Assembly: GCA_020696385.1 (NCBI GenBank)
Contig: JAEHCQ010000003.1
Span: forward strand, 64,001-128,000
Direction: 5' to 3'
Length of the DNA stretch: 64,000 bases
From: Methanobacteriota archaeon
GTDB taxonomy: Archaea; Thermoplasmatota; Thermoplasmata; SG8-5; JAGLSY01
In this document: in pieces, positions 2,952 through 20,800 of the stretch
How positions within the stretch are numbered: position 1 is the stretch's first letter
Layout of the letters: each line of letters starts with the position of its first letter
Notes under the pieces: generated by a model
Databases searched by the model: none
Told to the model about the DNA's origin: nothing
What the model saw: the letters and a program-made list of their open reading frames with translations, nothing else
Translations under genes and position numbers: made by a program

Positions 2952-4418
2952 ATGAGAAGCCTCAGGATAATGATGTCGGTTTTTATAGTCGTGGCTTTAT
3001 TTATATCGCTGGCCCCCCTTTCAGAGGCAGCGGATACTGTGCCGCCAGTCACCACATTGACAATTATCGGAGCTCAATGGGATATTGACATTACCAATGT
3101 GTCATATACCTACATCAATTCCACTACCCAATTCAATCTCACAGCCCAGGACGATAATGGAACTATTTCCCAGATATCATACAGGATATGGTATCCGGCA
3201 AGCAATTGGACTGCCTGGACCAATTATTCTAGTAATTTCACCATAGATGCTGATCTTGACGGCTTCCATTACATCGAATATTACGCAATGGACAATGCCA
3301 GCAATAATGAGACCGTGAACAATCAGACGGTCTTTTTCGATGATAACGATCCAAGAATAGAGAGCAATAATCCAATGGACGGTAGCGTGGATATCTCCTG
3401 GGGAACTGATATCTCGATCATATTCAATGAACCCATGAACATATCGTCTGTCGAGAATGTCACTTCAATAGAGCCAGCAGTCGAGATCGATGCTTATGAA
3501 TGGACATCCAATAACACAAACTTGACAATAATTCTAAAGGATAATATGAATCACAGCATGGTCTATACTCTCACAATGGGCATGAATGCATCCGATATCA
3601 TGGGTAGTTTCATTGGATCCAATTATTCCTTTAGCTTTACAATATGGCAGGACTTCGATGATGATGGCCAGCCAGATATCCAGGATGATGATGATGATAA
3701 TGATGGATTCACGGATATCTGGGAAGACTTCATGGAAACATCACCGACAAATGCAACAGATATGCCTGTTGACACAGACAATGATGGAGCACCAGATGGT
3801 GATTGGAACAATTCCCAAGCATGGATGGATCTGGATGATGATAATGATAAAGTTCCTGATCTTAATGATACTTTTCCACTCGACCCCAGAGAGCAGATAG
3901 ACACAGATGGCGATGGTGTCGGAGATTATGCGGACGACGACGATGACGACGATGGTGTGGACGATAACGAGGATGTCTTCCCATTGAATGAGGATGAATG
4001 GGTAGACACCGATGAGGACGGTATCGGCAATAATGAGGACACGGATGATGACAATGATGGCTATGTTGACATCCATGATGCCTTCCCACTGGATGCCACC
4101 GAGTTCCTGGACACTGATAGGGATGGAATTGGCAATAATATCGACACCGACGATGATGGGGACAATGTAACAGATGCAGAGGATCCATTCCCACTTGACA
4201 AATCAGAATGGGCGGACTTCGATGGTGATGGCATCGGAGATAATGGGGATACGGATGATGACAATGATGGCTATGTTGACAGCATTGATCCAGACCCATA
4301 CGATGCAGAAGTAGGAAGATTCAGCGACGGTATTATCTTATTATGGCTCATAATCGGAATTATAGTGGTATTGGTAGGTCTCATGGCCTTCCTTATCGTT
4401 AAAGGGCCTCCACAATAG
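2952..4418 (+). CDS. Secreted, membrane-anchored protein with Ig-like domains and thrombospondin type-3-like Ca-binding repeats
   Basis: Signal peptide; Big_5-like IIFNEPMN; repeated DxDxDGxGDxxDxDDDNDG..D.FPLD; C-terminal TM helix. Confidence 0.85.
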
Positions 4419-4575
4419 ATCTGTAAACTACACTACAGATCACAAATGACCCACATACCAATACCAACCTTGAGAATCTTGAAAGATCACATTTGTGAAA
4501 TAACAGCATATTTGTACGATTTGATATTTCAAAACCTTTATTATCCCATTTAAGATACCCACCTTCGGTGATATC

Positions 4576-5652
4576 TTGTCACATAACAGACTATTCATAC
4601 CTGGACCAACAGAAGCGTTGCCCGAAGTGTTAGCAAAGCAGACCGATTACCTCATTGGCCATCGAAGCAAGGACTTTACAGCCTTGTACACCGGGATCAT
4701 CGGCAAGCTCCAAGAGTATTTTGAGACCGAACAGCACGCGACCGTGTTAACGTCATCTGGAACTATCTGGATGGACATAACTGCCCGCAATATTGTGCAG
4801 AAAAAGGCACTGGCCGGAGTTTGCGGAGCTTTTTCACAGAGGATGGCCAAGACCATTAGCGACTCTGGGAAGGAAGTTGACACCCTGGATGTCGAATGGG
4901 GTCAGGCAATTAAACCAGAGGCTGTTCTTGAGGCACTGGCAAAGGATGATTATGACACAGTTGCCATAGTTCACAATGAAACCTCAACGGGTGTTCGCAA
5001 CCCGGTAGGAGATATTGGCGCGGCCATCAAGAAAGAGTATCCGGATATCATGTTCGTCGTGGATGCTGTTTCCTCAATGGGTGGAAATTACATGGTGCCG
5101 GAGAAGATGAACACTGACATTTTATTCGCATCCACCCAGAAGTGTTTCGCATTACCCCCTGGTCTTTCCATAGCCCTGTATTCGGAAGAGGCAGTGGAGA
5201 GAGCGAGGACCGTACCTGGCCGTGGCTTTTACACCGACCTCGTAGGAATTCATGATTATTATCTCAAGAAACAGCAGAACCCAACCACACCCAATATGTC
5301 CCTGATGTACGCGCTCACATACCAGCTGGACAGGATGCTGGCAGAAGGAGCGAAGGCAAGGCATGACCGCCATGAGCAGATGGCACAGTATACCAGAGCC
5401 TGGGCCAACAGGTACATGGAGATGTTCCCAGAGCCTGGCTATGAATCAATTACAGTATCCACCATTGCCAATACACAGGAGAAGAACATTGGAGATCTGA
5501 ACAAGGAACTGGCAAAGAAAGGATATCAGATCGCGAACGGTTACGGAGCCAAACTGAAAGAGAAAACATTCAGGATCGGACACATGGGAGAATGGAACCT
5601 GGATGATGTCAAGTCATTACTTTGGCATATCGACGAAATATGGGAGCAATAG
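4576..5652 (+). CDS. Class V PLP aminotransferase (alanine-glyoxylate / archaeal phosphoserine aminotransferase-like)
   Basis: LFIPGPT, VHNETSTGV, VDAVSSMGG, STQKCFALPPG, FRIGHMG; directly upstream of serA. Confidence 0.88.
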   Translation: MSHNRLFIPGPTEALPEVLAKQTDYLIGHRSKDFTALYTGIIGKLQEYFETEQHATVLTSSGTIWMDITARNIVQKKALAGVCGAFSQRMAKTISDSGKEVDTLDVEWGQAIKPEAVLEALAKDDYDTVAIVHNETSTGVRNPVGDIGAAIKKEYPDIMFVVDAVSSMGGNYMVPEKMNTDILFASTQKCFALPPGLSIALYSEEAVERARTVPGRGFYTDLVGIHDYYLKKQQNPTTPNMSLMYALTYQLDRMLAEGAKARHDRHEQMAQYTRAWANRYMEMFPEPGYESITVSTIANTQEKNIGDLNKELAKKGYQIANGYGAKLKEKTFRIGHMGEWNLDDVKSLLWHIDEIWEQ

Positions 5653-5672
5653 AAATATCAGGAGGGTGTGAA

Positions 5673-6572
5673 ATGAAAATAATAGTATCGGACAAGCTGG
5701 CAATGGAAGGCGTGCAGAAACTGAAGGATGGCGGATTTGAAGTTCTCGAGGCCTGGGATGAGCCAAAGGACAAGCTGCCAGAGCTGATAGCCGATTGCGA
5801 CGCTATCGTCATCAGAAGCGCGACCAAGGCCACGAAGGAACTCATAGACGCTGGCACCCAGCTCAAAGTAATTGGCAGGGCGGGTATCGGCCTGGACAAT
5901 GTGGACCTGGAGCATGCCAAGGCAAAAGGAATTGTAGTTGTCAATACACCAGCAGCCACCACCGCATCAGTTGCGGAGCTCACATTCACATTGATGCTGG
6001 CCACAGTTCGCGATGTGGTTCGCGGAACTACCGGTATCAAAGAAGGCAAGTGGGAAAAGAAACAGCTCAAGGGCAATGAGGTCTTCGGAAGGACACTGGG
6101 TGTCATCGGTATCGGCCGCATAGGAACTGCTGTGGCCGAGAGAGCCGAAGCCTTTGGAATGAAGATCCTGGCCTATGATCCTTACACAAAGAGCGATAAA
6201 TTCGAAAATGTCGATCTGGACACAATAATAGCACAGAGCGATTTCATCACCCAGCATCTACCGCTTACTCCCGAAACAAAACACATGATCGGTAAGGACC
6301 AGTTCGCCAGAATGAAAGATGGCGTGACCATTCTCAATGTCGCCCGTGGCGGAACCATCGATGAAGAAGCACTATATGATGCGATGGTCAGCGGAAAGGT
6401 GGCCAAGGCCGCACTGGATGTCTTCGAAGTGGAGCCTCCAGTTGACAATAAACTGCTAACACTGCCCAATCTCATATGCACACCCCACATAGGTGCGCAG
6501 ACGCATGAAGGCCAGCTGAGAGCAGGTATCCAGGTTGCCGAGCGCGTGATGGAAGAACTGAACAAATTATAA
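5673..6572 (+). CDS. serA: D-3-phosphoglycerate dehydrogenase (short type, no ACT domain)
   Basis: RAGIGLDNVD, GVIGIGRIG, NVARGG, TPHIGAQT motifs. Confidence 0.85.
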   Translation: MKIIVSDKLAMEGVQKLKDGGFEVLEAWDEPKDKLPELIADCDAIVIRSATKATKELIDAGTQLKVIGRAGIGLDNVDLEHAKAKGIVVVNTPAATTASVAELTFTLMLATVRDVVRGTTGIKEGKWEKKQLKGNEVFGRTLGVIGIGRIGTAVAERAEAFGMKILAYDPYTKSDKFENVDLDTIIAQSDFITQHLPLTPETKHMIGKDQFARMKDGVTILNVARGGTIDEEALYDAMVSGKVAKAALDVFEVEPPVDNKLLTLPNLICTPHIGAQTHEGQLRAGIQVAERVMEELNKL

Positions 6573-6590
6573 TTGATAAGAGGTGAAAAA

Positions 6591-7829
6591 ATGGTAGTAG
6601 TAAGGGCATTCAAAGGTCTCAGACCGAGAAAGGACGTCGCGGACAAAGTGGCATCACCACCATATGATGTGCTGGATTCTGATGAGGCTAGGGAGCTGGT
6701 GAAGACCAATCCAATGAGCTTTCTCCGAGTTGTGAAGCCAGAGGTCGATCTTGATAAGGACATCGACCTGTACAGTGACGAGGTATATCAGCAGGGAGCC
6801 AGCAATCTACAGGCTCTCATAGATGATGGAATAATGGTACAGGATAAGAAAGCCATATACTACTTCTACAAACAGGTGATGGGCGACCATTCACAGGTCG
6901 GCCTTGTGGCTACTGTCGCAGCCACAAATTATGAGAATGACCTCATCAAAAAGCATGAATTCACCAAGCCAGATAAGGAAGCGGACCGAGTAAAACACAT
7001 CATGACGCAGAATGCACAATGTGGACCTGTTTTCCTGACATATCCAGATGATGCGGGGTTCAATAAACTTCAGGAGGAATTCTGCGCGGCCAATGAACCA
7101 TTCGCGGACTTTGTTTCGCCGGATGGTATCGGCCACGTCTTCTGGACGGTCGAGGATAAAAAACTGATAACCGCGATCAAGAAGACCTTTGACAAGATTC
7201 CAGCTCTGTATGTGGCAGACGGCCATCACAGAAGTGCGGCTGGCACTATAGTCGCACAGACCCGAAGATCAGAAAACAAAAAGCACAAGGGTGATGAAGA
7301 ATACAACTTCTTCCTGGCTGTCATATTCCCAAAGAGCAATATGAAGATACTGGCCTACAATCGAGCGGTGGCAGATCTCAATGGACTTTCAAAGGAAGAG
7401 TTCTTTGAAAAGGTGGGCAAGGATTTTCTCATCGCGCCCGATGCTGACCCAGTACCGACCTGCAATCATTTTTACTCCGCTTATATTGATGGCGAGTGGT
7501 TTGGATTGGAGCCACGTTACGGCACATATCCAGCTGACGACCCGGTGAAGAGCCTGGATGCCAGCATACTACAGGAGAACCTGCTCGGACCCATACTGGG
7601 CATTGAAGACCCGAGGACCAGCCAGCGCATAAAGTTCATAGGCGGTATCAGGGGAACACAGGAGTTGGAGAAGCTTGTCAACTCTGGCAAATTCCAGATA
7701 GCCTTCTCCATGCACGCAACTTCTATCAGCGAACTGATGGAAGTTGCGGACAGCGGCAATGTCATGCCTCCCAAATCCACCTGGTTCGAGCCAAAGCTGA
7801 GAAGCGGGCTTGTTGTTCATCAGATATGA
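6591..7829 (+). CDS. DUF1015 family protein
   Basis: VASPPYDV, IKKHEFT, YVADGHHRSAA, MPPKSTWFEPKLRSGL motifs. Confidence 0.9.
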   Translation: MVVVRAFKGLRPRKDVADKVASPPYDVLDSDEARELVKTNPMSFLRVVKPEVDLDKDIDLYSDEVYQQGASNLQALIDDGIMVQDKKAIYYFYKQVMGDHSQVGLVATVAATNYENDLIKKHEFTKPDKEADRVKHIMTQNAQCGPVFLTYPDDAGFNKLQEEFCAANEPFADFVSPDGIGHVFWTVEDKKLITAIKKTFDKIPALYVADGHHRSAAGTIVAQTRRSENKKHKGDEEYNFFLAVIFPKSNMKILAYNRAVADLNGLSKEEFFEKVGKDFLIAPDADPVPTCNHFYSAYIDGEWFGLEPRYGTYPADDPVKSLDASILQENLLGPILGIEDPRTSQRIKFIGGIRGTQELEKLVNSGKFQIAFSMHATSISELMEVADSGNVMPPKSTWFEPKLRSGLVVHQI

Positions 7830-7936
7830 TCTTGTGCATATTGGGCAAATAGTAAGAGGTAAATTACGCCAGAGTTTAGGATGACTCAGGCGTACTCTAT
7901 TAAATAAGATGCTGTCTTTAGGAAAATCGAAGTTTT

Positions 7937-8719
7937 ATGGTTCAGAAGATCAGTGGCATTATTGCAGACCGCGCTTACTCCGAATATGAGAAAAAGCTTG
8001 TCAAAGAGGTTCAGGACGGCAAGACTCCCAATCATCTGGCTATCATCATGGATGGTAATCGACGCTTCGCAATGGAGCTGGGGCTTGGCAAGGCAGAGGG
8101 GCATGTCCAGGGCAAGAACAAGCTGGAGGAAGTTCTAGAATGGTGTTTGGAGGCCGATATTAAAATTCTAACTGTTTACGCATTCTCAACCGAGAACATG
8201 ACCCGCGATTCAGATGAACTGGCCACTCTGATGAAGCTGTTCGAAGAGAGCTTCAGAAAAGTGGCTGTGGACGAGCGTGTGATAAAGAACAAGATCAAGG
8301 TTCGTGTACTCGGGGACACCCAGTTACTTCCAGATAATGTTCAGGAAGCCATTAAGTTTGCCGAAGAAAAGACCAAGGATCATAATAATCATACTTTCAA
8401 CCTGGCCATTGCTTATGGAGGTCGTCAAGAGATCATCATGGCCATCAAGAAGATCGCTGAAAGCGTGAAGAAAGGTGATCTGGAGCCAGCAGATATCAAT
8501 GAAAAGATCTTTGCGGATTTTCTATACACTGCCGACCTTCCGGATCCTGACCTCGTCCTTAGAACATCGGGCGAGGAGCGTATATCCAACTTCCTATTAT
8601 GGCAACTGGCCTATTCAGAATTATACTTCACAGATGTGTACTGGCCAGGCTTTAGAAAGATCGATTTTTTAAGGGCTATAAGAGAGTATCAGAAGAGAGC
8701 AAGAAGATACGGGAAATAG
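7937..8719 (+). CDS. uppS: Polyprenyl (undecaprenyl) diphosphate synthase
   Basis: HLAIIMDGNRR, YAFSTEN, YGGRQEI, RTSGEERISNFLLWQ, RRYG motifs. Confidence 0.95.
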   Translation: MVQKISGIIADRAYSEYEKKLVKEVQDGKTPNHLAIIMDGNRRFAMELGLGKAEGHVQGKNKLEEVLEWCLEADIKILTVYAFSTENMTRDSDELATLMKLFEESFRKVAVDERVIKNKIKVRVLGDTQLLPDNVQEAIKFAEEKTKDHNNHTFNLAIAYGGRQEIIMAIKKIAESVKKGDLEPADINEKIFADFLYTADLPDPDLVLRTSGEERISNFLLWQLAYSELYFTDVYWPGFRKIDFLRAIREYQKRARRYGK

Positions 8720-9064
8720 ACGAGCGAGCAGGCTTGGGCGAATTTTCTTTTTTAAGATGTGCATTTTAGAAATGCATGCATCTTTTTTATCAAGCCAGAT
8801 GGCTTGATTCAGCACTGTAATACTTTTCTTTTAGAGCCCAAGCCAGCACAGCGAGGTAAAAAGAAAAGGCTTACGTGAGTATCAGAAGAGAGCAAGAAGA
8901 TACGGGAAATAAACGAGCGAGCAGGCTGAATCTCAGCAAAGCTGAGCTTTCAGAATCTCGGCATAGCCGAGCTCCGGCGAATTTTCTTTTTTAAGATGTG
9001 CATTTTAGAAATGCATGCATCTTTTTTATCAAGCCAGATGGCTTGATTCAGCACTGTAATACTT
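8684..9064 (+). repeat. Tandem duplication of the uppS 3' end plus a hairpin-rich block
   Basis: 8684-8734 matches 8877-8927 (one difference, TAG vs TAA); 8737-8825 matches 8976-9064. Confidence 0.9.
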
Positions 9065-9134
9065 GTTCTTTTTAAATATGGCAAGTAAGCCATGATCTTT
9101 ATAAATTAAAATTAGCAATTGTGGGCTAATTAAT

Positions 9135-9785
9135 TCAGAATATTGGCCCATAGTCTGCGACGAAATTTATAATTCCAGTCATGACGAACTGCACCGCGAT
9201 GGCAGCCAGTATCAGACCCATTATCCTGGAGAAGGCCAGTGTTCCCATTCTACCGATCCTCTCGAATATCGCTTCTCCATAATACAGAATGAAGTAAGAA
9301 GCAACCATGGTTATCAAGATTGCCAGTATCACCATGAGAGTGGCTGTTAAACTGAACCCATCAGCAGAACCATCAGACATGTAGATCATCACCGTGGTTA
9401 TAGCTCCCGGGCCACCAAACATCGGTACTCCAAGAGGAACGATACCGATGGCCTGGCGGTTCATCGCCTCTTCCTTGTCCTGCTCAGTCAGTTTTGCCTT
9501 GGATCGCGTACCATGCAGCATGGAAAATGCAATGCTGAAGAGTAAAAGACCACCTGCGATCCTGAAAGCTGGAATGGTTATGCTGAATATCTCAAATATA
9601 TAATGGCCAGCAAGGGAAAATGTTACCAGGACCACAAAGGCCACTGTCACGATCTTCCATATGACCGAGTTTCGCTCTTCTCGAGTATAGCCCTCGGTCA
9701 ATGCCACGAAAAATGTCACGTTACCCACTGGATTGACTATGGCGAAGACTGCGATTATTACGGAGATAGCGAAATCAGTATCCAT
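9135..9785 (-). CDS. MarC family integral membrane protein
   Basis: NPVGN, FRIAGGLLLF, IVPLGVPMFGGPGAITT, SRIMGLILAAIAVQF motifs. Confidence 0.92.
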   Translation of the reverse strand: MDTDFAISVIIAVFAIVNPVGNVTFFVALTEGYTREERNSVIWKIVTVAFVVLVTFSLAGHYIFEIFSITIPAFRIAGGLLLFSIAFSMLHGTRSKAKLTEQDKEEAMNRQAIGIVPLGVPMFGGPGAITTVMIYMSDGSADGFSLTATLMVILAILITMVASYFILYYGEAIFERIGRMGTLAFSRIMGLILAAIAVQFVMTGIINFVADYGPIF

Positions 9786-9864
9786 TGAAGCGTGGCAGAC
9801 AGATACTGTATTTAAATATAGTGGCTGAATGAAAAATAAAAAAGAATAATTAAGAGGTATGAGA

Positions 9865-9893
9865 AACACCCGCCAAACGAAAAGGCGGGTGTT
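9865..9893 (-). terminator. Stem-loop downstream of the parvulin cluster
   Basis: AACACCCGCC / GGCGGGTGTT perfect 10-bp stem, followed by U-rich sequence on the minus strand. Confidence 0.55.
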
Positions 9894-9915
9894 ATCTCCT
9901 CATCGAGCACTTCGT

Positions 9916-10206
9916 TTATTTCTTGCCAGTCACCTTTATGATATGATAGCCGAACTGAGATCTAACAGGTCCAGACATCTCCCCTTTTTCAAGAGAGAAA
10001 GCAGCTTCCTCAAAGGGTTTGGCCATCTTGCCCTTTCCAAAGTACCCAAGATCTCCGCCCTTCGCTCTTGAAGGACAGCTTGACCACTTCTTCGCCTGGG
10101 TCTCGAAGCTCGCGCCTTCATTCAATTTCTTGATTATCTTCTCAGCCTCTGATTTCTTGCCAACAAGAATATGACTGGCTCTCACTTTCTTTACATCTTT
10201 AACCAT
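9916..10206 (-). CDS. ppiC: Parvulin-type peptidyl-prolyl isomerase (copy 3)
   Basis: VRASHILV, SCPS..KGGDLGYF, FEEAAF, SQFGYHII motifs. Confidence 0.9.
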   Translation of the reverse strand: MVKDVKKVRASHILVGKKSEAEKIIKKLNEGASFETQAKKWSSCPSRAKGGDLGYFGKGKMAKPFEEAAFSLEKGEMSGPVRSQFGYHIIKVTGKK

Positions 10207-10234
10207 ATGATCACTCTTTATCAAACAATGAACC

Positions 10235-10525
10235 TCAGCGTTTTTTCATCACCCTGATGATATGATAACCGAACTGCGTCCTCACCGGCCCGGATGTTTC
10301 ATCTTTCTCCAGAGAGAACGCAGCCTCCTCGAAGGGCTTTGCCATCTTCCCCCTTTCGAAATAGCCGAGGTCCCCTCCCCGCTTTTTGGAGGGACATTTT
10401 GAATAAGTCTTTGCCAGTGCAGTGAAGTTCGCTCCCTCTTCAAGCTTCTTCAATATCATATTTGCATCTCTTATAGTGCTAACGAGAATATGTCTGGCTC
10501 TGACCTTCTTGATCTCTTTGGCCAT
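10235..10525 (-). CDS. ppiC: Parvulin-type peptidyl-prolyl isomerase (copy 2)
   Basis: VRARHILV, KCPS..RGGDLGYF, TQFGYHII motifs. Confidence 0.9.
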   Translation of the reverse strand: MAKEIKKVRARHILVSTIRDANMILKKLEEGANFTALAKTYSKCPSKKRGGDLGYFERGKMAKPFEEAAFSLEKDETSGPVRTQFGYHIIRVMKKR

Positions 10526-10553
10526 TATATCAGTACCTGACGACGATACAGGA

Positions 10554-10835
10554 TCAGCGCTTGTCCGTCACCATGATGATGTGGTAGCCGAACTGAGATT
10601 CCACTGGCTTGGATATCTCTCCGATCTCCATTGAAAAGGCCGCGTCCTCGAAGGCTTTTACCATTCTTCCCTTTCCAAAGAATCCAAGATCTCCGCCACC
10701 CTTGCCGGATGGGCATGTTGAGAACTTCTTTGCCATATTGGCAAAATCCGATCCAGAGGCAAGTTTTCCACTGACCTTCTGCGCTTCCATTTGAGTTTTC
10801 ACAAGTATGTGACTGGCTTTGACTTCTGTTACCAT
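10554..10835 (-). CDS. ppiC: Parvulin-type peptidyl-prolyl isomerase (copy 1)
   Basis: VKASHILV, TCPSGKGGGDLGFF, SQFGYHII motifs. Confidence 0.9.
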   Translation of the reverse strand: MVTEVKASHILVKTQMEAQKVSGKLASGSDFANMAKKFSTCPSGKGGGDLGFFGKGRMVKAFEDAAFSMEIGEISKPVESQFGYHIIMVTDKR

Positions 10836-10843
10836 AGTAATCG

Positions 10844-10963
10844 AACCACAAATGACACATTGAATATATATTGGTTATGAATCACAGAATTATTATTGAA
10901 TATATATTGATTTTGCAGAACCGCAGAATATTCATTGAATATAATTGGTTAGTAACCACAAAT
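10844..10963 (-). promoter_or_regulatory. Degenerate triple tandem repeat (~36-39 bp unit), each unit with a TATA-like core, upstream of the parvulins
   Basis: ATTGAATATA(T)ATTG at ~10859, ~10895 and ~10934, each preceded by an AACCACA/AATCACA/AACCGCA-like motif. Confidence 0.6.
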
Positions 10964-10982
10964 TGATCTTTGAGTATTACCA

Positions 10983-12683
10983 TCAATTTTTCTGCTTTGC
11001 ATTCTTTTTGTTCTGTATTTTAGCCCAAGAATCCCTGAGGCCAACAGTTCTGTTGAATATGATATTCTCATCGGATGAATCCGGATCAACACAGAAGTAT
11101 CCAGTCCTCTCGAACTGCACAGTATCCCCATGCTTGAGATCCTTTACGGCAGGCTCCACCTTGCAGCCTGCCAGTGTCTTGAGTGAGTCGGGATTGATGA
11201 ACTCCTTGTAATCATGCTCTTTTTCACCAAGGGGATGTTCCACCGTGAAAAGCCTGTCGTATAGGCGTATCTCCGTGTCAATGGATTCGGTCGCTGATAC
11301 CCAATGAATGGTGGCCTTGACCTTGCGGCCATCAGGAGCATTGCCGCCACGACTGTCCAGATCCACGGAGCAATGCAATTCAACAACCTCGCCAGCATCA
11401 TTTTTCACGACATCATTGTATGTCAGCAAGTACGCATATCTTAGGCGAACTTCCCGACCAGGTGCGAGCCTGAAGAATTTCTTGACTGGCTCCTCCATGA
11501 AATCCGCGCGCTCGATGAATATTTCTCGAGTAAAAGGAACCTGGCGACTTCCCGCATCCGGATCCTCTGGATTGTTTATGGCATCCAGCATGTCGATCTC
11601 GCCCTCCGGGAAATTGTCGATAACTATCTTGAGCGGGTCAAGAACTCCCATGACTCGCGATGCTTTTTTATTCAGATCATCGCGAACGCAAGCCTCCAGT
11701 AATTCGAAGGCGATGACATTCGCCTTCTTCGCAATACCTGCTCGAGAGCAGAATTCCTTGACGGCCTCGGGGGTGTAGCCGCGCCTCCGCATGCCACATA
11801 TTGTCGGCATGCGCGGATCATCCCAGCCATTGACAAGCTCCTTGGTCACAAGCTCCTTGAGGAAACGCTTGCTCATTATCGTGTAAGAAACATTCATCCT
11901 GGCAAACTCGATCTGCTGTGGATGATAGATACCCAGCTCATCCAGGAACCAGTCGTAAAGTGGTCGATGATTTTCGAATTCTATCGAGCAAAGCGAGTGA
12001 GTGATACCCTCAATGGAATCCTCCAGGCCATGTGCCCAATCATAAATTGGATAGATACACCATTCGTCACCAGTATGCGGGTGGGTGGCATGCAGGATCC
12101 TGTACATTGGCGGGTCGCGCATATTCATGTTCGGATGCGCCATATCGATCTTCGCCCTCAGCGTCTTGGAGCCATCCGGGAATTCACCCTTCTTCATCCT
12201 CTCGAAGAGATCCAGGCTTTCCTCAACTGATCTTTCACGGTTGGGGCTGTTCCTACCGAGGTTATTGTAATCACCTCGGTATTCCTTCATTTCCTCCGCA
12301 TTGAGGTCGCAAACATACGCCTTGCCTTTTTTGATAAGGTCAATAGCATAGTCATACATCTGCTGGAAATAATCAGATGAGAATAATAGGCGATCCTCGA
12401 AATCCGCACCCAGCCATTTCACATCTTCCACGATGGAATCAATGAATTCCTTTTCTTCCGCAATGGGATTCGTGTCATCGAATCTAAGATTGAATTTACC
12501 GCCATATTCGTCCGCGATCCCGTAATTGACCCAGATGGCCTTCGCACTGCCCAAGTGCAGGTATCCATTTGGCTCTGGTGGAAATCGAGTATGCACTCGT
12601 CCATCGTATTTCTTGGTCTTGAGGTCCTCGTCTATGACCTGTCTTATAAAATCGCGTGATTGGCTTTCTTCCATTGGATTCAC
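10983..12683 (-). CDS. glnS: Glutamine--tRNA ligase (bacterial-type GlnRS)
   Basis: N-terminal FIRQVIDEDL, TRFPPEPNGYLHLGS, HSLCSIEFENHRPLYDW, QIEFARMN, MSKR; GlnRS beta-barrel motifs FFRLAPGREVRLRYAY, KVKATIHWVS, QFERTGYFCVD, FNRTVGLRDSW. Confidence 0.93.
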   Translation of the reverse strand: MNPMEESQSRDFIRQVIDEDLKTKKYDGRVHTRFPPEPNGYLHLGSAKAIWVNYGIADEYGGKFNLRFDDTNPIAEEKEFIDSIVEDVKWLGADFEDRLLFSSDYFQQMYDYAIDLIKKGKAYVCDLNAEEMKEYRGDYNNLGRNSPNRERSVEESLDLFERMKKGEFPDGSKTLRAKIDMAHPNMNMRDPPMYRILHATHPHTGDEWCIYPIYDWAHGLEDSIEGITHSLCSIEFENHRPLYDWFLDELGIYHPQQIEFARMNVSYTIMSKRFLKELVTKELVNGWDDPRMPTICGMRRRGYTPEAVKEFCSRAGIAKKANVIAFELLEACVRDDLNKKASRVMGVLDPLKIVIDNFPEGEIDMLDAINNPEDPDAGSRQVPFTREIFIERADFMEEPVKKFFRLAPGREVRLRYAYLLTYNDVVKNDAGEVVELHCSVDLDSRGGNAPDGRKVKATIHWVSATESIDTEIRLYDRLFTVEHPLGEKEHDYKEFINPDSLKTLAGCKVEPAVKDLKHGDTVQFERTGYFCVDPDSSDENIIFNRTVGLRDSWAKIQNKKNAKQKN

Positions 12684-12816
12684 CTTTTATGGCCTAGGCT
12701 AATTGGAATTACCTAATTAATGTTTCTTTGGCAAACCATTCAAAAAGTAGGGTATCCAAAAAACGGGGTGCCAGGCATTATAAAAAATCATAGATTTTAA
12801 CGGTAAAAAAAGAAAG

Positions 12817-12890
12817 AGCCATTGGAGAGATTTGAACTCCCGACCTGCTGATTACAAATCAGCCGCTCAACCGGGCTAAGCTACAATGGC
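12817..12890 (-). tRNA. tRNA-Thr(TGT)
   Basis: Cloverleaf GCCATTG/CAATGGC; anticodon arm GCTGA-TTTGTAA-TCAGC; T-loop TTCAAAT. Confidence 0.95.
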
Positions 12891-13135
12891 GTATGCATTC
12901 TGTACCAATGGCCATTGTAGGTCGAGCTTCAATGGCGCATGGTATTATTACCCCTGGAAGTTAAATTTATATAAATATCTATTGAATGACAAATCATTGC
13001 AAATGAGTTAAATATCAATTCGTTTTTACACGGTTGCTGAAATATGCAAAATGTGCTCAATTGCCTCGAGGTGTGAACACGGAACTTAAGTTCCTTAGTT
13101 GACACCACTCGGCTGTTGGGTATAAAAAACCCAAC

Positions 13136-13207
13136 AGCCTCGTAGTGTAGCGGTTATCATGGGAGACTCTGGATCTCTCGACTCCAGTTCAAATCTGGAC
13201 GAGGCTA
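13136..13207 (+). tRNA. tRNA-Gln(CTG), archaeal type with A1-U72
   Basis: Acceptor AGCCTCG/CGAGGCT; anticodon arm GGAGA-CTCTGGA-TCTCT; T-arm TCCAG-TTCAAAT-CTGGA. Confidence 0.95.
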
Positions 13208-13554
13208 TATATTTTTATTAATGAGTCCAGATTTGAACTTAGCCCGAAAATGAATATCAACATTTTACAGCTTAATGCTAGGGCGTGAGCGTGGATTCGC
13301 AAGGCTAATCCACGTCATATTCAAAGAGGCTACCATATTTTATCACTTCATAAGTTTGATTTATCTTAACACAGTGAAGATCCATATAAAGAAAATGTAA
13401 ACAATAATAACCGCCGAAATTCCTAAAAATAACAAAAAAAGTTGTGCGAAATAATCCTTTATATACTTTTCTATGGTCTATATTTAAAGGTTATTGCCAA
13501 AAAAATAATACCCACCAAAAGGTCTTTATATCTCCCTTCACAATAACCAAAATG

Positions 13555-13616
13555 GGATTGTGGCAAGGTGTTCGTTCCCTTGATATAGAATACCTTGCTT
13601 CGCCTCCTTATTTTTC
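13555..13616 (+). ncRNA. Putative small RNA A
   Basis: TATA-like CTTTATAT at ~13525; stem GCAAGGTGTTC/GAATACCTTGC; ends in a T-tract; no credible ORF. Confidence 0.3.
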
Positions 13617-13682
13617 AAATAATAGATCAATTATGAAATATAATTTTAAATTTTAATCCAGAAACATATGACATACTCTCAG

Positions 13683-13762
13683 GAAAAAAGGTGAAGCGAA
13701 AGGAAAAAGTAAACTTTATGGGGGAAGAGAGTCTAACAAAATGCCCCTCCGCTTCGTCACCA
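13683..13762 (-). ncRNA. Putative small RNA B
   Basis: Minus-strand CCTTATAT at ~13780; 5' GGTGACGAAGCGGAGGGG pairs with 3' CCTTTCGCTTCACC; followed by TTTTTT. Confidence 0.35.
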
Positions 13763-13878
13763 GCATATTGTAATTAGAATATAAGGTTTACGATTTGTAT
13801 GACGGCATTCTACAGGCAGAGCAATATGATATTGTTATAGTGACTAGGTCATGTCTGCCATTATAATAGTCATGTCAA

Positions 13879-14706
13879 TTATTCCAATTTTTTATGGATA
13901 TAGGAATCTCCTTCTTCCCAATATCTCAACCCATCCACAAGCAGTCCATTCTCATCTCTCAGGAATATCACATCACCGTTATTATTCCATATGGATGAGT
14001 CACTTCCCCAATATACCGTGATATTGGAATCCGTACCAGTTCCGCTTGCGAGAGATATTGAAGTGCCTGGCTCAAAAGTAATATCATCAAATCCATACAT
14101 ATGAGTTGCCTCATCCTTCACATTCCAATAGGTCATGTTGATCGGATCATCCCCATTGTTCGTAAATGTTATTGTCTCATAGTTCAGGCCAGCATCCCCC
14201 GAGAGCTGGATCGGCTGGAAATCGGATATCACCACATCATAAGGAGATGGTTCCCATAGGCCTCTCTTGGCCGCGATGGCCTCAGCCTCAGCCTCCTTTA
14301 GTTCGTCCCAGTATTTCGAATTGGGCTCGATGACATAGACATGGGCATAGCCCGACCTCACCATTTCCAGATTGACATGGACATCCCCCGCCCATACATA
14401 GCGCAGGAGTCGGCCGTAACCGTCCTTATCGGCCACATCGCCCTCCAGCCTTATCTCGCCTCCACCAAGGAGCTCTTCAAGCCTTTCTGTGGCCTTATCG
14501 GCGTATGGCACGCCCCTCTCGGGAGTGTTGATCCCCAGAAAACGTATCGAATCTCCATTCGTGGTCCTGATAGTATCTCCATCGACCACGTAATCCACAT
14601 GAGTGAATTCATCATTAGCACTTGGAAGTATATCCGAAGAAATAAGGATGCCAGCAGCTGCCAGGACCAGAATAATTACAGCTACCGCGATCTTGCCAGA
14701 GGACAT
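13879..14706 (-). CDS. Secreted thermonuclease (SNase) fused to a lamin-tail domain
   Basis: Signal anchor; VVDGDTI, IRFLGINTPE, DGYGRLLRYV, RGLW; LTD motif IWNNNGDVIFLRD..G. Confidence 0.9.
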   Translation of the reverse strand: MSSGKIAVAVIILVLAAAGILISSDILPSANDEFTHVDYVVDGDTIRTTNGDSIRFLGINTPERGVPYADKATERLEELLGGGEIRLEGDVADKDGYGRLLRYVWAGDVHVNLEMVRSGYAHVYVIEPNSKYWDELKEAEAEAIAAKRGLWEPSPYDVVISDFQPIQLSGDAGLNYETITFTNNGDDPINMTYWNVKDEATHMYGFDDITFEPGTSISLASGTGTDSNITVYWGSDSSIWNNNGDVIFLRDENGLLVDGLRYWEEGDSYIHKKLE

Positions 14707-14779
14707 GAACCTGCATAGCCAGAAGGATAATTAAACCTATCTTTGGTGTTGGGAGTCCTCGGTTTTATAGATAGGTTGT

Positions 14780-14858
14780 CTGAAAAGGTAAGATTATCTG
14801 AAAGTAGAAAATTACCTGAAAAAGGTAAGATTGCCTGCGGCAGTTAATACCGCAGGCA
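14780..14858 (-). terminator. Hairpin plus three ~18-bp U-tract repeats downstream of the giant surface protein gene
   Basis: TGCCTGCGG/CCGCAGGCA stem at 14832-14858; CTGAAAAGGTAAGATT-like unit x3. Confidence 0.5.
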
Positions 14859-14897
14859 TTGGCTTTGACTTCAGTGTCCTGTCTAGAATATTCCAGA

Positions 14898-17800
14898 TCA
14901 TTCTTCCTCGCTGGTCTTCATGCTATCAGCACAATCATTGCAGACGAAATCACCTTCTCCATCAGAGGATCCAGTCTTTCCAGACACTCCACAGTACGCA
15001 CATTTGTCCTCTTTTGCTGGTTCAGGCTTCTCCTTATCGCTGCCACCCTTTCTCATGCTGATGACGGTGTTGACAAGAAGCAGGATTATGACTATTATCA
15101 GAAGCAGCATGATGATGTTCTGATTTCCCTGCTGCTCACTTGACTCCGCACCCACCTTGTCCATCACGCTGGCCTCTGCCTCATCCAGACTTTGTGCCAA
15201 TGTGAAGAGATCGGCTCGGATCTCATCCAGTTTTGCAAGCTCTGCAAGAGTGTCATCGATATCTGCCAGGGTTGCATTGATATTATCCTGGAAGTCCATG
15301 ATGTCCTGGTTCAGAGCCTGAAGATAAAGTAGAGCTCCAATGTCATGGGATGATAGATTGGCGGATATCCAATTCAGCCTCTGAGTTAATTCGGCCAGTG
15401 TCAATGAATTGAGGTCACGGATAGTGTCATCGAGTAGAACCAGATCAGCAGTCATATTCTCATCATGAGATACCAGAAGCTCTCTCAGTCCGGCCAGTGA
15501 ATTATTGAGGTCACTGTAGAAGCCATCCACCATGTTCTCAAGATCAACTATCCTGCTGTCCAGGTAGGCAGTGTCTGCATCCAGAGCGGCGATCATATCG
15601 ATCAGCGCAGATGCAAGACCGTCCTGCATCGTGATGTTCAGACCATCCAGATCCATACTGAGACCATCCAATAGAAGGGTCAGGTCAGCTGTCTGATTCA
15701 TTATCTGACTGTACAAAGCGAAGTCCACCCTGGCCAGTTCGTCCATGAAGGTCAGATTAAGGCCATCTATGAGACTGGTCAGGTTTCCCTCGACCTGCCA
15801 TAGGTCCGAATACAGGCTGGCAACTGTCATGTTCAGGTAATCGATGTCCGCCTGAAGATCTGACACACTCATATTCAGCCAGGCAAGATCTATCTGCACC
15901 TGAAGTAGAGTGGCATTGACATAATCAACATCGGCCTGCATAAGATCCAAAGTGGTATTGAAGTCTGCCCAGTAAGCAGATATCTGACCATATGTCATCA
16001 TATTCTCCATTGAGAGATTCGTCATACCGGAATCCATTGCGAATCTCATACTCGCTATGCTCGCATCCATCGCAGATATGTTAAGGTCCTGCGATGACAG
16101 CATTCCGCTTATGTATGATTCTGTGGCCGCCATGTCAGTCCAGGTTGTATTGAACCAGGCATTGGTTTGACTTGTCTGGGCCATAATGTCACCCCAGGTC
16201 ATATTGAACCAATCATTGACCTGACTTGTCTGGGATGACGCATCAGCCCAGGTTGTGTTGAACCAATCATTGATCTGGGATGTCTGGGCTGCCATCGTGG
16301 TATTGTAATGTGCCCAGAACACTGTGAATTCCGCCCTCAGATCATTCAGGGATGACTGCATCGCCAGCTGTGTCATATTAGCAAAGTTCAGATCGTTCTG
16401 GATCTGTGTCATCGTGGTATTCCAGGATGTCCAGTATAGGCTCTGCAATGTATGTGTGTCATTATGCTGGCCCCACATTATCTGGAAATAGTTCTGCATC
16501 GCGGCATCCATACTGGTCAGATTGGCATCCAGCTGTCCAAGATTTCCGGACAGATCGCTCAGAAGCAGGGTGATATTCGCCTCGAAGCCACTCATCTGGC
16601 TCCTGATGCTGGCGCCCTCGGCCTGGATGGTCAAGTTCAGACCATCCATCGTGGTGTTCAGATAGTTCTGATATGCCTGGAAATACAGATGCCAGTTATC
16701 CCATGTTAGATTGAAATCATCCCTGTGTGCGAGCAATTGTGCCAGTATGATATTGGCCGTCGCATCCAAAGATGCAAGATCAAGCTGTACTTGCAGAAGT
16801 GTGGCATTGAGGAAATCAATGTCCGCGCCCAGTGCGGCAGATGTCATATTCCAGTCTGCCCAGTAGAGGCCATGTAGTGCTTGTGTATCATTGTGCTCGT
16901 CCCACATAGACTGGAAATAGGCCTGCATGACCGCATCCATGTTGGTCACATTAATATCCAACTGCCCAAGGTCAGCATCCAGATCATTCAAGAGAGCGGT
17001 CATATTGCCCTCGAAATCATTCATCTGGGTGTATACAATAGCTATCTGGTCCTGAAGTGTTATGTTCAATCCGTCAGTCGTTGTATTGAAATATGACCAG
17101 TATGAATCGAACTGCGCGTCCCATGTTGCCCAGGTTGCATTGAAATCAGTCCAATATGCCTGTATCAGCGCATTGTTCGCAGTCACTGTCGCATTGATAT
17201 CAGTAATTGTCTGGATCCAGCCAACGACCTCGAAGCTGGTTATTCCAATGTAATTGAAGCCAGCTATCTGGGCGTTCACTGCAACGAAGTAGGTTCCTGC
17301 CGCGGGTATGCTGTCACTGTATGTGTAGAGCCCGAATGATGCATCCAGTATGTTCATGGATGCATTGTCCACGATCTTTGTCATGGTGTCGTCAAATATG
17401 GTCACGCTCACATTGGTGAAAGCGTCTGGCACCAATGCCTGACCGTTCTGGGTTACGGATGCCATGATATCATATTCAACACCATTGGCATCGTACTGAA
17501 GACCAGTTGTGACATCCACATTTGTTGGTGGTGTTGTGGAAGATAGGGTCACGGTGACTTCCTTTGACATATCGATTGAAGCAACAGTGGAGCCCATCAA
17601 AAGACCATTATTGGCAATAGCCAAATGCGGTGTATTAGCTGTCTGGCTAGCCTGATCCTCGACATACTCTGTCACAATATTCCATCTGGCATATCCATTA
17701 GCATCGGCATTCACATTGTAAAGCGGTGTATTGAAGATATCAGCGATCTCCACCTGTGCTCCTGGTACTGGCTGCATCATGTCATCACGCACGTACACAT

Positions 17801-20800
17801 CCATGAACCACTGTATCTCAAGTGTGGAGAGCGCATCCATATAATTTATGGATGCCTTGTTAAAGGTCGAGTTCAGTGTCGTGATGTGGCTGTCCTGGTC
17901 CAATGCCAACTCAAAGCCATTGCCAGAGAACGTGAAGTTCTCAATGGTGAAGGTACTGTCAACACCAAAAACACCGGTCGGAGAGTTGGTTATGGTATTC
18001 AGAGACATTGGAGTGGTATAATCAGAACCCCTTACACCCAGTCCAAAAGCCGTAAGTGCGTTCATTGTGTTGCCAGTTATGAGATTGTCACCAGAGTCCC
18101 AAGAATAGATACCTATGGGGCTGCTGGTTATAATGTTCGATATTACAGTGTTGCCGAATGTCCCATCAGACAATCTGATACCTTCAGAGATCGCGCCGGT
18201 AATAGTATTGCCAGATACAAGATTTCCAGTGGATGTAAGAGTGACTAAGACCCCTATCATTGAAGAGCTCATCAAATTGTTTGTAACATAGTTCGAATCT
18301 GAATCACTTAAACTGATATCATTCTGGGCATTGCTATTGAATGTTGAACCGTTGATCACATTGTAATTTGACGATTGTAATCTTATGCCTCGCCATAGGC
18401 TTGAGGTGATCGTGGAGCCCTCGATGGTATTGTAATCACAATTAAAGGCAAACACCCCCCCACTGTCACTGTTCGTGATCACAGTATTGATAATGGTGTT
18501 GTAATCGGCATCACGCAGGTACAATCCATATCCCTCATCGCTATTGGATATCGTCGAGTTGATTATGTAGTTGTTATCTGACCTAAGGTACAATCCATGA
18601 GCATTGCCAGTGAATGTCGCATTGTAGAGAAATACGCCGTTTGCGTATACTTCCACACCTTCATTTGACCAATCCCAGCCGGCATCCCTAATGGTACTGT
18701 TCTCCACCCTGAAGCCAGCACCACTCATCACATTGATAAGATATCCAAAGGTCGTGTTGGACATCACAGTGCTTCCTTCGATTAGATTGAAGGTACCTGT
18801 GGAGTTCACCTGGATAAGATACTGGCCATGGAAGGCATTGTTCATTCTCAGCTCGGTCTCGTCAAGTATCAAAGAACCACCGCTCTCGACCCAAATATCA
18901 CCAGTCTGGTTCCAGAAGGATGGATCCACAGTTAGTGTTCCGCCATTCCTTATGACCAGCTGGCCAGTGAGATTGAATGATGAGTCCCTTATCAGGACAT
19001 CGACACCATCGACGGTGACATCCTCGAAGTACGTCATGTCATCAAGATGTAATTCATCGCCATCACTTGCATTGGCGATGGCTCCCTGTAGTGTATCATA
19101 CCACAATCCCTGGTCCCAATTGAGAACATGCTGGTCAGGATGTAACATATTCCATCCGAATGGGTTGGTATGGGGGAAATAATCAGTTGAGTCACCGTCG
19201 ATCACGTATGGAACATCGACAAAGCCATCCCAGTTTATGTCCGGAGATGTCCAGGTGTCGAAATAATTACCACCCTGGGCATACCCTAGATTGTAGGTGT
19301 TGGCTGCGAAAGAATCCAATATATGCACAGTGTTATTGATGAAATTATTGTGGAATATGTAATTCCCATTGAAGCTGCCAGGTGATGTCACATAAATACC
19401 ATTGGTTCCATCCCTGAAGGTATTATTGCTGATCTCATTGCCATTGGCAGTATTTGCTGAGCCACCATTCCATATCCCATTACCATTGCCAGATACCATG
19501 TTCCATCTTATCAGATTGTTATCTGAGTAATCCCAGATCCTGAATCCAATGCCTGAATTCAAAATGGTATTGTTGTTTATATCACAAAGATCCGTATTGA
19601 CTATATTTATTCCATTGGCCGCATTGTCATAAAAGTCATTATATCGGACAATAACGCCATCGGCACCATTGAGCATCAATCCGTCCAAACCATTCCCGTA
19701 TATCATGTTCTGGAAGACCGTGGCTCCATCGGAGAACAGGTAAAGGCCAGTTCCGGTATTGTTGTAGATCGTGTTATTGGCTATATAATGCGGTGATGTG
19801 GAATCCATCTGGATACCCTGACCACCATTGAATCCAACGGTATTACTCTCGATGATAGCATCATCAGGATAAGATCCCTCAAAGTAAATTCCTGCGCCAG
19901 TGTTGTTGTGGACGTAATTATCGATCACCTCTGCCCAATCAGCATACCAGTAGAAGTTGATACCCTCTTCAGAATTGTAAGATATCTCATTTCTATATAT
20001 CTTATTGGAGTCGCCGTGGTAAACGTAGATACCGATCCTATTGTATTGAATAGTATTGTCAAGTATCTTGTTATTATCACAGTCATCATCTTCCAGTGCT
20101 ATGCCATCTACAGTGCTGTTCGTCACGGTGTTATTGTGTATCGTGTTTAATGTAGAGGTTCCGTACATTGATAATCCATTGGCCGCACTGTTATTGATAG
20201 TGTTCCAGGCAATTATATTGGATGATCCTCTGAAGCGCATTCCATAGCTGTTCGAATCCAATATATCATTATCTCTGAAGATATTCGAGTTACCTGTGGA
20301 GATGATACCATATAGATTGGTATTGATGATCGTGTTATTATGAACCTTTGTTGAGTCACTGGCACTGTACATATCGATACCATAGGAGTTCGTATCGCTG
20401 ATCGTATTATGGGAAATGATATTGTTGGACGCTCCGGTGAAGTATATTCCAGTTGCCCCGCCTGTTATGGTATTGTTGTCGACAATACAATTTGTTGGAC
20501 CATCGATCTGTAATATGTTCTGAGCAGTCGAGGAGGCCGAGAGGTCATTCCAGGTCACATTGTTCCACTGGCTAACACTGGTTATCCTGAGCTGACCAAT
20601 ATTGTCAATGATATCGTTTTGTGTAATGGTGTTAGAATCAGAACCATCAGCAACATAAATTCCCAGGTTGCCATTGTCATATACCATATTGTTCTCGATC
20701 AGGTTGAAATTTGAATTCCAGACAACTCTGATTCCAGTCAATATATTTGAGCCCATTGAACTATTGGCTACATAACTGTAGTTTGAATTATAGTATCCAA

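Follow-up and report, generated by a model that had tools for sequence, protein, structure and literature searches.

A bacterial-type glutaminyl-tRNA synthetase native to a Thermoplasmata archaeon and its likely use of archaeal-type tRNA-Gln

Introduction

Why does the genome of an uncultured Thermoplasmata archaeon carry glnS, the gene for a bacterial-type glutaminyl-tRNA synthetase (GlnRS), close to a gene for tRNA-Gln, and can the enzyme charge a tRNA of the archaeal type? We examined this question in a stretch of 64,000 nucleotides, referred to below as the window (G000:C33:64001-128000, where G000 is the genome under study). Our analysis points to a functional GlnRS, native to this archaeon, that would attach glutamine directly to the organism's own tRNA-Gln, a presumed substrate that still has the A1-U72 pair and discriminator A73 of the archaeal type. 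We regard glutaminylation of archaeal-type tRNA-Gln by the window GlnRS as likely, and the strongest evidence available is the A1-U72/A73 tRNA-Gln of relatives in which the amidotransferase GatDE was not detected.

An enzyme of this kind is at odds with the way archaea are commonly described. A 2022 paper (PMC9499178) states that the GlnRS gene is lacking in all known archaeal lineages and explains its absence by identity elements that set archaeal tRNA-Gln apart; a 2021 paper (PMC8007984) makes the same claim, and in both the archaeal tRNA-Gln (A1-U72, A73) is said to be unusable by bacterial or eukaryotic GlnRS. A 2016 study (PMC5388404) reports no GlnRS among the archaeal genomes it analysed, and a 2022 article (PMC8762117), citing Di Giulio 2020, assigns the indirect route to "almost all archaea". 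A preprint on Heimdallarchaeia (bioRxiv 10.1101/2024.07.04.601786) describes a comparable case, an archaeal host with a GlnRS gene, and places these genes next to cox genes. Our literature search found no published description of a GlnRS in Thermoplasmatota, supplementary files being outside its scope, and in metagenome-assembled genomes (MAGs) of Thermoplasmata these proteins already carry the name glutamine--tRNA ligase, given by automatic annotation in GenBank. What deserves notice here is the archaeal host domain, the archaeal identity set of the tRNA and the apparent loss of GatDE in some lineages; the enzyme family itself is known.

The glnS Gene Encodes a Bacterial-Type GlnRS

The gene and the sites discussed below are as follows:

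10983..12674, minus strand: glnS, bacterial-type glutaminyl-tRNA synthetase, 563 amino acids (aa) from the ATG at 12674; TIGR00440, 698 bits
10983..12683, minus strand: longer form of the glnS open reading frame (ORF), 566 aa from an alternative GTG at 12683
12680..12686, minus strand: Shine-Dalgarno-like AAGGTGA with a 5-nt spacer to the ATG at 12674, read from the sequence
12546..12557, minus strand: HIGH signature in the form H-L-G-S, residues 43-46, with Ser in place of the second His, from the alignment
11970..11972, minus strand: Asn238, aligned to E. coli Asp235; the best Protein Data Bank (PDB) match is a chain with Asn there
11865..11879, minus strand: KMSKS signature in the form I-M-S-K-R, aligned to E. 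coli VMSKR, from the structure alignment

The original prediction had described a complete 566-aa class I synthetase with GlnRS motifs and an altered HIGH signature. The ORF is present, all of the quoted motifs occur in its translation, and the protein passes the NCBIfam glnS model TIGR00440 with 698.2 bits against a cut-off of 425.8. The ATG at 12674, nine bases downstream of the GTG at 12683, is the likelier start, because it is preceded by AAGGTGA with the 5-nt spacer and because the public gene call (P0001) is 563 aa long. The HIGH motif does read HLGS at 12546-12557 on the minus strand: its first His and its Gly are kept and its second His is Ser, and KMSKS reads IMSKR.

Profile and structure comparisons agree on the family. 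The NCBIfam model for GlnRS/YqeY fusions (NF011291) scored 811 bits, with a match confined to profile positions 9-567 of 769; a YqeY tail is therefore missing from the window GlnRS. The archaeal gltX model gave 377.9 bits, under its cut-off of 401.75. The Pfam domains follow the order of a class I E/Q catalytic domain (PF00749, residues 30-338) and two beta-barrel anticodon-binding domains (PF03950 at 341-441 and PF20974 at 458-533). Aligned to solved structures, the protein matches E. coli GlnRS from one end to the other (residues 6-556), scoring 667-670 bits; the scores for other structures were 665 bits for P. aeruginosa, 494 for D. radiodurans, 446 for human, 393 for yeast and 191 for the archaeal-type glutamyl-tRNA synthetase (GluRS) 3aii. 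Window residues R33, Y214, C232 and Q257 align to E. coli R30, Y211, C229 and Q255, which we take to be the residues selecting glutamine over glutamate. Judged by these scores and alignments, the window protein is a class Ib GlnRS of bacterial type, not a GluRS.

The enzyme resembles E. coli GlnRS (GlnS; PDB 1GTR/1QTQ, 1QRS) in length class, domain order, KMSKS signature and aligned glutamine-pocket residues, and like it has no appended N- or C-terminal domain. It differs from E. coli GlnRS in its HLGS motif, in having Asn for Asp235, Tyr for Leu136 and Met for Ile129, and in its archaeal host.

The Locus Is Native to an Archaeal Genome and the Gene Is Widespread in the Phylum

The G000 bin comprises 2.28 Mb in 50 contigs, with 94.5% completeness and 0.39% contamination, and archaeal GluRS, GatD and GatE are encoded in the same bin as glnS. 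The nearest named homologues of the window GlnRS come from Thermoplasmata/Thermoplasmatota MAGs. GC content is 0.49-0.50 in glnS and 0.43-0.49 in the adjacent coding sequence. As a linkage test for glnS we used synteny with G002, an independent assembly from the same genus: window positions 3001-21566 are collinear with contig C32 of G002 at ~85% nucleotide identity, across glnS, both tRNA genes and both flanks. The host of glnS is archaeal, the gene is native to this genome, and the contig is no chimera, a possibility that the original prediction had singled out for checking.

An assembly or binning artefact, in which a bacterial gene was misplaced into an archaeal bin, is extremely improbable. 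One stray contig of the same bin (C16) does hold a bacterial GlnRS fragment; against an artefact, the window glnS lies ~75 kb inside a 261.6-kb contig, the genes flanking it on either side are also its neighbours in G002, and its orthologues occur in 56 of the 301 genomes of our phylum sample, where they form a clade of their own. Contig G000:C16 is 716 bp long with a GC content of 0.557 and 10 N, and its fragment shares 75-80% identity with Myxococcota/Zixibacteria GlnRS, as against 56-67% with the window GlnRS; it is probably bin contamination.

Two genome samples were searched, one of 41 relatives including G000 and one of 301 Thermoplasmatota genomes of at least 80% completeness, from 137 genera. 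GlnRS exceeded the cut-off in 19 of the 41 relatives and in 56 genomes (35 genera) of the phylum sample. The counts differed by family, for example 22/38 in f35, 12/15 in f38, and none in f9 (0/37), f20 (0/21) or f45 (0/47). The earlier suggestion that this lineage acquired direct glutaminylation holds insofar as G000 has a native GlnRS, with the correction that the trait is lineage-wide and not special to G000.

The Linked tRNA-Gln and Its Acceptor Stem

Two tRNA genes, both located with ARAGORN, lie upstream of glnS:

12816..12890, minus strand: tRNA-Thr(UGU), on the strand of glnS and 132 nt upstream of it
13136..13207, plus strand: tRNA-Gln(CUG), archaeal type, the presumed substrate; A1-U72, G2-C71, C3-G70, A73, loop CUCUGGA

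The tRNA-Gln gene had been placed about 450 bp from glnS; the distance to the ORF is 452 bp, with the tRNA-Thr gene between the two. The A1-U72 pair and A73 attributed to it are likewise read directly from the window sequence. The A1-U72, C3-G70 and A73 of this presumed substrate differ from the E. coli identity set, which we take, partly from PMC9499178, to be U1-A72, G3-C70 and G73.

Linkage of tRNA-Gln to glnS is not peculiar to this window. A tRNA-Gln gene lies near glnS (~0.1-4 kb) at 6 of 14 archaeal loci and also in G007, G010 and G012, and adjoins it at 9 of 78 bacterial loci. Among these nine bacterial tRNAs, U1-A72 is found in eight and A1-U72 in one (Chloroflexota), so that the first pair is weak in all nine; five of them carry G at position 73 and the other four A. 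Enzymes of the bacterial subfamily to which the window GlnRS belongs would thus already handle A73. The U1-A72/G73 rule cited earlier for E. coli GlnRS proved specific to E. coli, with A73 in 4/9 and A1-U72 in one of the linked bacterial tRNAs, and the acceptor-stem barrier therefore seems lower than had been supposed. The barrier to a bacterial-type GlnRS using archaeal tRNA-Gln may have been low.

On the enzyme side, the top PDB match of the window GlnRS is 1qrs_A, a chain with Asn at E. coli position 235 that we take to be the D235N relaxed-specificity mutant of E. coli GlnRS. Asp235 of the E. coli enzyme reads the G3-C70 pair of the acceptor stem. In our alignment (sampling is given with the trees below), this column holds Asn in 13 and Asp in two of the 15 archaeal rows; of the 73 bacterial rows, 35 have Asp, 17 Val, 15 Asn and six another residue. 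Where a bacterial enzyme could be paired with its linked tRNA, three of four enzymes with Asp are matched to a G3 tRNA and four of five with Val to a tRNA whose third base is not G, which suggests, in a small sample (n = 9), that the Asp235 position co-varies with the 3-70 pair of the tRNA. One archaeal GlnRS with Asp in this column is linked to a C3 tRNA. We considered Asn at this position as an archaea-specific adaptation and rejected it, as Asn is not specific to archaea, occurring in 13/15 archaeal rows and also in 15/73 bacterial ones. Only one alignment column, at window residue 516, cleanly separates archaeal from bacterial GlnRS rows.

Relatives with GlnRS and No Detected Amidotransferase

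We cross-tabulated GlnRS against gatD by hand in the phylum sample, with a gatD threshold of E<=1e-90:

GlnRS-positive, 56 genomes: gatD found in 36, not found in 20
GlnRS-negative, 245 genomes: gatD found in 226, not found in 19

Twelve of the 19 GlnRS-negative genomes without gatD belong to family f28, where gatD scores fall right at the threshold, and four to f35. The genomes are related to one another and the bins incomplete, and the table is to be read as a pattern, not as a statistic.

Family f4 offers the clearest view. GlnRS is encoded in G007, G010-G014 and G016, with a partial copy in G015; these genomes are 77-93% complete. Searches for gatD and gatE in all eight returned nothing except a 39.8-bit asparaginase-like match in G007, and the gatB model, which also detects GatE, had no match in five of the GlnRS-bearing f4 genomes. 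Three f4 genomes without detected GlnRS (G017, G018 and G019) have gatD, and G017 and G018 have gatE as well.

The tRNA-Gln genes of the GatDE-less genomes include both isoacceptors, CUG in G007, G010, G012 and G013 and UUG in G011 and G012. Their acceptor stems read AGCCCCG...CGGGGCU-A or AGUCCCG...CGGGACU-A, that is, A1-U72 and A73. Since these GlnRS-bearing relatives without an amidotransferase keep such tRNAs, GlnRS very probably charges archaeal-type tRNA-Gln; in these genomes it would be the sole route. The earlier proposal that the enzyme had adapted to an archaeal acceptor stem thereby gains comparative support. GatDE appears to have been displaced by GlnRS in several Thermoplasmatota lineages.

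Several f4 genomes also carry a partial second tRNA-Gln(CUG), comprising its 5' two-thirds, ~150 bp from the intact gene (L019 1984-2056; L101/L104, G007:C8:71266-71323).

A Divergent GatDE Coexists with GlnRS in G000

A search for gatD, gatE and gltX had been proposed for the rest of the genome, and all three are present in G000. Its archaeal GluRS scores 599.6 bits, over the cut-off, its GatD 504.5 bits (cut-off 324) and its GatE 350.5 bits (cut-off 319.55). The amidotransferase genes form an operon:

G000:C44:184049-187272: gatE-gatD operon, gatE 607 aa and gatD 467 aa, ORFs overlapping by 4 nt

The ratio of nonsynonymous to synonymous substitution rates (dN/dS, Nei-Gojobori method) against G002 is 0.086 for gatE and 0.029 for gatD. 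Because the operon is intact and under selection, GlnRS is not demonstrably required in G000. Coexistence of GlnRS with GatDE, which had been raised as a possibility, is thus borne out, the enzyme that coexists being a divergent paralogue of canonical GatDE.

The GatE of G000 matches only profile positions 2-554 of 622, and among the Pfam domains only GatB_N was detected, not the GatB_Yqey tail. A tree of 24 GatE sequences, obtained by careful search, splits at 100/100 into a canonical "a" and a paralogous "b" clade of 12 rows each. Within the "b" clade a long branch (1.61) unites the GatE proteins of G000, G001, G002, G017 and G018, and no canonical "a" copy was found in these five genomes. 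G000 GatD is closer to the "b"-linked GatDs (52-53% identity against 37-46%). The canonical GatDE thus seems to be gone from G000, where the direct route would coexist with GluRS and the divergent GatDE-b. Compared with the indirect pathway of archaea, in which a non-discriminating GluRS works with GatDE as in M. thermautotrophicus, G000 likewise encodes GluRS, GatD and GatE, and differs in that its GatE belongs to the paralogous "b" clade without a detected GatB_Yqey tail.

The two GatE clades are a wider feature of Thermoplasmata (loci L132-L151), the "b" GatE having its own GatD; G005, G022, G027, G029 and G031 each have one "a" and one "b" copy.

A role of GatDE-b as an Asn-tRNA amidotransferase was ruled out. 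G000 encodes an asparaginyl-tRNA synthetase (AsnRS, 420.3 bits against a cut-off of 342.6), and a profile search found neither GatA nor GatB in this genome. With AsnRS and GlnRS both present, both amide amino acids would have a direct route in G000.

A tRNA-Gln-Like Gene Linked to gatE

Upstream of the operon stands a further gene:

G000:C44:183951-184024: tRNA-Gln-like gene, 25 nt upstream of gatE, Rfam tRNA model 47.2 bits

Its acceptor stem is like that of tRNA-Gln(CUG) with an A1/A72 mismatch and A73, and its anticodon loop UCUUGCA gives the anticodon UUG with C33 and C37. G000 therefore holds three genes of tRNA-Gln type, namely CUG by glnS, a normal UUG on C22 and this odd UUG-type gene on C44. 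The odd tRNA is linked to gatE-gatD in all five genomes of the long-branch GatE-b subclade (also L113, L114, L115 and L143), directly upstream of gatE in G000, G001, G002 and G018 and ~1.8 kb upstream in G017. In G018 it lies 61 nt upstream of gatE and combines the A1/A72 mismatch and A73 with a canonical loop, GUUUGAC. The loop UCUUGCA is found in 4/5 copies and the A1/A72 mismatch in 5/5. When the five are aligned, pairing holds in 100 of 100 structure cells, compensatory changes occur at 8 of the 20 pairs, and the observed covariation score was reached by no shuffle. No tRNA gene was found beside GatE at 19 of the 20 other loci retrieved, the sole one being that of G018. The motif AGGTCTTGCACCT was tried as a probe for the odd tRNA and rejected: it gave 13 matches in 12 of the 41 relatives and 7 control matches, and only four were tRNAs, the rest lying in a protein-coding gene.

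These genes raise the question of a division of labour, in which GlnRS would serve part of the tRNA-Gln pool (for example CUG), GluRS with GatDE-b would serve the rest or only the odd tRNA, and the two routes would be insulated. The three tRNA-Gln-type genes of G000, the constant linkage of the odd one to gatE with its structure kept and its 1-72 mismatch invariant, and the purifying selection on GlnRS, GatE and GatD alike all fit such an arrangement. We nevertheless consider it unlikely: the GatDE-less relatives hold both CUG and UUG tRNA-Gln, which GlnRS would have to serve alone, and G017 and G018 (70% and 72% complete) have GatDE-b and the odd tRNA with no detected GlnRS, so GatDE-b may there be an ordinary amidotransferase. 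The odd tRNA is probably a poor ribosomal substrate, and its pairing with GatDE-b could for that reason be a non-translational or regulatory aminoacyl-tRNA system. The full form of this idea, two insulated systems with GlnRS acting on the canonical tRNA-Gln(CUG/UUG) and a fast-evolving GatDE-b that has lost its canonical tail domain acting on a dedicated odd tRNA, possibly outside translation, is doubtful and is put forward only tentatively.

Selection on glnS and the HLGS Variant

The window glnS is under purifying selection, with dN/dS = 0.025/0.518 = 0.049 against G002 over 555 codons and 0.076 against G001, where dS is saturated. At the HIGH position G002 reads HLGS and G001 reads HIGS. 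The second His is kept in all 73 bacterial rows and in 11 of the 15 archaeal rows; the other four have Ser (two rows, from the genus of G000) or Asn in the form HIGN (L016 and L019). Other class I synthetases function with a residue other than His at this position. L016 is the GlnRS of G010, a genome with no gatD, gatE or gatB-type match, so that a HIGN enzyme is the only Gln-tRNA route detected there; a GlnRS with the altered motif can thus very probably be active.

These data bear on a further alternative, in which the GlnRS of this genus would be catalytically weakened or repurposed through HLGS/HIGS and Gln-tRNA would still come from GluRS and GatDE-b. Conservation of the second His in 73/73 bacterial relatives and 11/15 archaeal copies speaks for it, as does the intact GatDE-b of G000. 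We find it very unlikely, given a dN/dS of 0.05 over 555 codons, the retention of KMSKS and of the aligned glutamine-pocket residues, and the second archaeal pair with HIGN, one member of which comes from G010 with no detected gatD, gatE or gatB.

Origin of the Archaeal GlnRS

Three trees were built with IQ-TREE (LG+C20, quick search, support from the Shimodaira-Hasegawa-like approximate likelihood ratio test, SH-aLRT). The first had 89 rows, made up of the window GlnRS, 14 loci from Thermoplasmatota, 73 bacterial loci drawn from the 80 best named ones, and the GluRS of G000 itself; two of the 80 were Thermoplasmatota and five (L035, L045, L072, L080 and L096) were removed by a motif filter before the tree. 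A branch with support 100 had every bacterial row on the same side, and this split was kept at 99 in the second tree (52 rows), to which E. coli glnS had been added. For the third tree (59 rows) we added cluster representatives from a search of 1.84 billion proteins, including seven eukaryote-type GlnRS confirmed by their PF04558 N-terminal domain, one of them a plant GlnRS by name.

The third tree is rooted between the eukaryote-type GlnRS and the rest, and the GluRS of G000 falls outside the bacterial-type GlnRS. Together with the profile scores, it answers the check on phylogeny that had been proposed: the window protein falls among the GlnRS and apart from archaeal GluRS. The 15 archaeal rows together make up a single clade (SH-aLRT 100), which is nested among bacteria near Chloroflexota/Planctomycetota with a support of 87 that is not decisive; deeper branches lead to E. 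coli, a gammaproteobacterial representative and the YqeY-fusion types. The first two trees, rooted on the GluRS of G000 alone, put the archaeal rows in a grade at the base of the bacteria; we rejected this placement as an artefact of the GluRS root branch, which has a length of 10, the rows becoming a nested clade once the seven eukaryote-type sequences were added.

The simplest reading of these trees is one old transfer of glnS from bacteria into Thermoplasmatota: an ancestor within the phylum would have acquired the gene once, and it would since have spread or been inherited across many families. Branching inside the archaeal clade departs from the family codes, and later transfers within Thermoplasmatota are likely.

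The nearest relatives outside the archaea are GlnRS from uncultured bacteria, Planctomycetota and Chloroflexota among them, at 56-65% identity for named genomes and up to 70% for metagenomic proteins. The window system is like theirs in having tRNA-Gln beside glnS, and some of their tRNAs have A73 and some of their enzymes Asn or Val at the Asp235 position. It is unlike theirs in that the archaeal copies form their own clade and in that the linked tRNA has A1-U72, against U1-A72 in 8/9 bacterial cases.

A Plasmodium-type GlnRS (P0123, P0126; 865 aa, no PF04558) branches inside the bacterial-type GlnRS, apart from the other eukaryote-type enzymes.

Weighing the Evidence and Significance

Several observations count against direct charging by a transferred bacterial enzyme. 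The absence of gatD and gatE in the relatives rests on MAGs that are 77-93% complete; four f35 genomes are without both GlnRS and gatD at the thresholds used; G000 retains an intact gatE-gatD operon under selection (dN/dS 0.03-0.09); and the Ser of HLGS replaces a His kept in all 73 sampled bacterial GlnRS, which could lower activity. As to origin, the first two trees, which are without eukaryote sequences, show the archaeal rows as a basal grade, and the nesting of the archaeal clade in bacteria was recovered by a quick search at SH-aLRT values of 82-87. The identity and integrity of the gene, the selection on it, its native linkage, its spread over genomes, its pattern relative to gatD and gatE and the tRNA sequences are direct observations; from comparison we infer that these tRNAs are charged, which way the gene was transferred, and that the HLGS and Asn238 substitutions are tolerated.

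A bacterial-type GlnRS that is native across much of one archaeal phylum stands against reviews that treat the absence of this enzyme as a defining archaeal trait. The genomes offer a natural series of states, with GatDE only, both routes or GlnRS only, that could reveal how an aminoacylation pathway gets replaced and which residues retune acceptor-stem recognition, with positions Asp235 and Leu136 and the altered HIGH motif as candidates. The series also bears on when GluRS must turn discriminating, and GlnRS/tRNA pairs with unusual identity rules could find use in genetic-code engineering.

Neighbouring Genes

Directly downstream of glnS, window positions 9916-10835 on the minus strand hold three tandem paralogues of 93-102 aa, which are PpiC-type parvulin prolyl isomerases, and these are followed by a gene for a MarC-family membrane protein at 9135-9869. 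On the other side, positions 13879-14706 (minus strand) encode a 275-aa protein with a staphylococcal-nuclease domain and a lamin-tail domain. This stretch is without a counterpart in the syntenic region of G002 and so represents an insertion or deletion between the two species.

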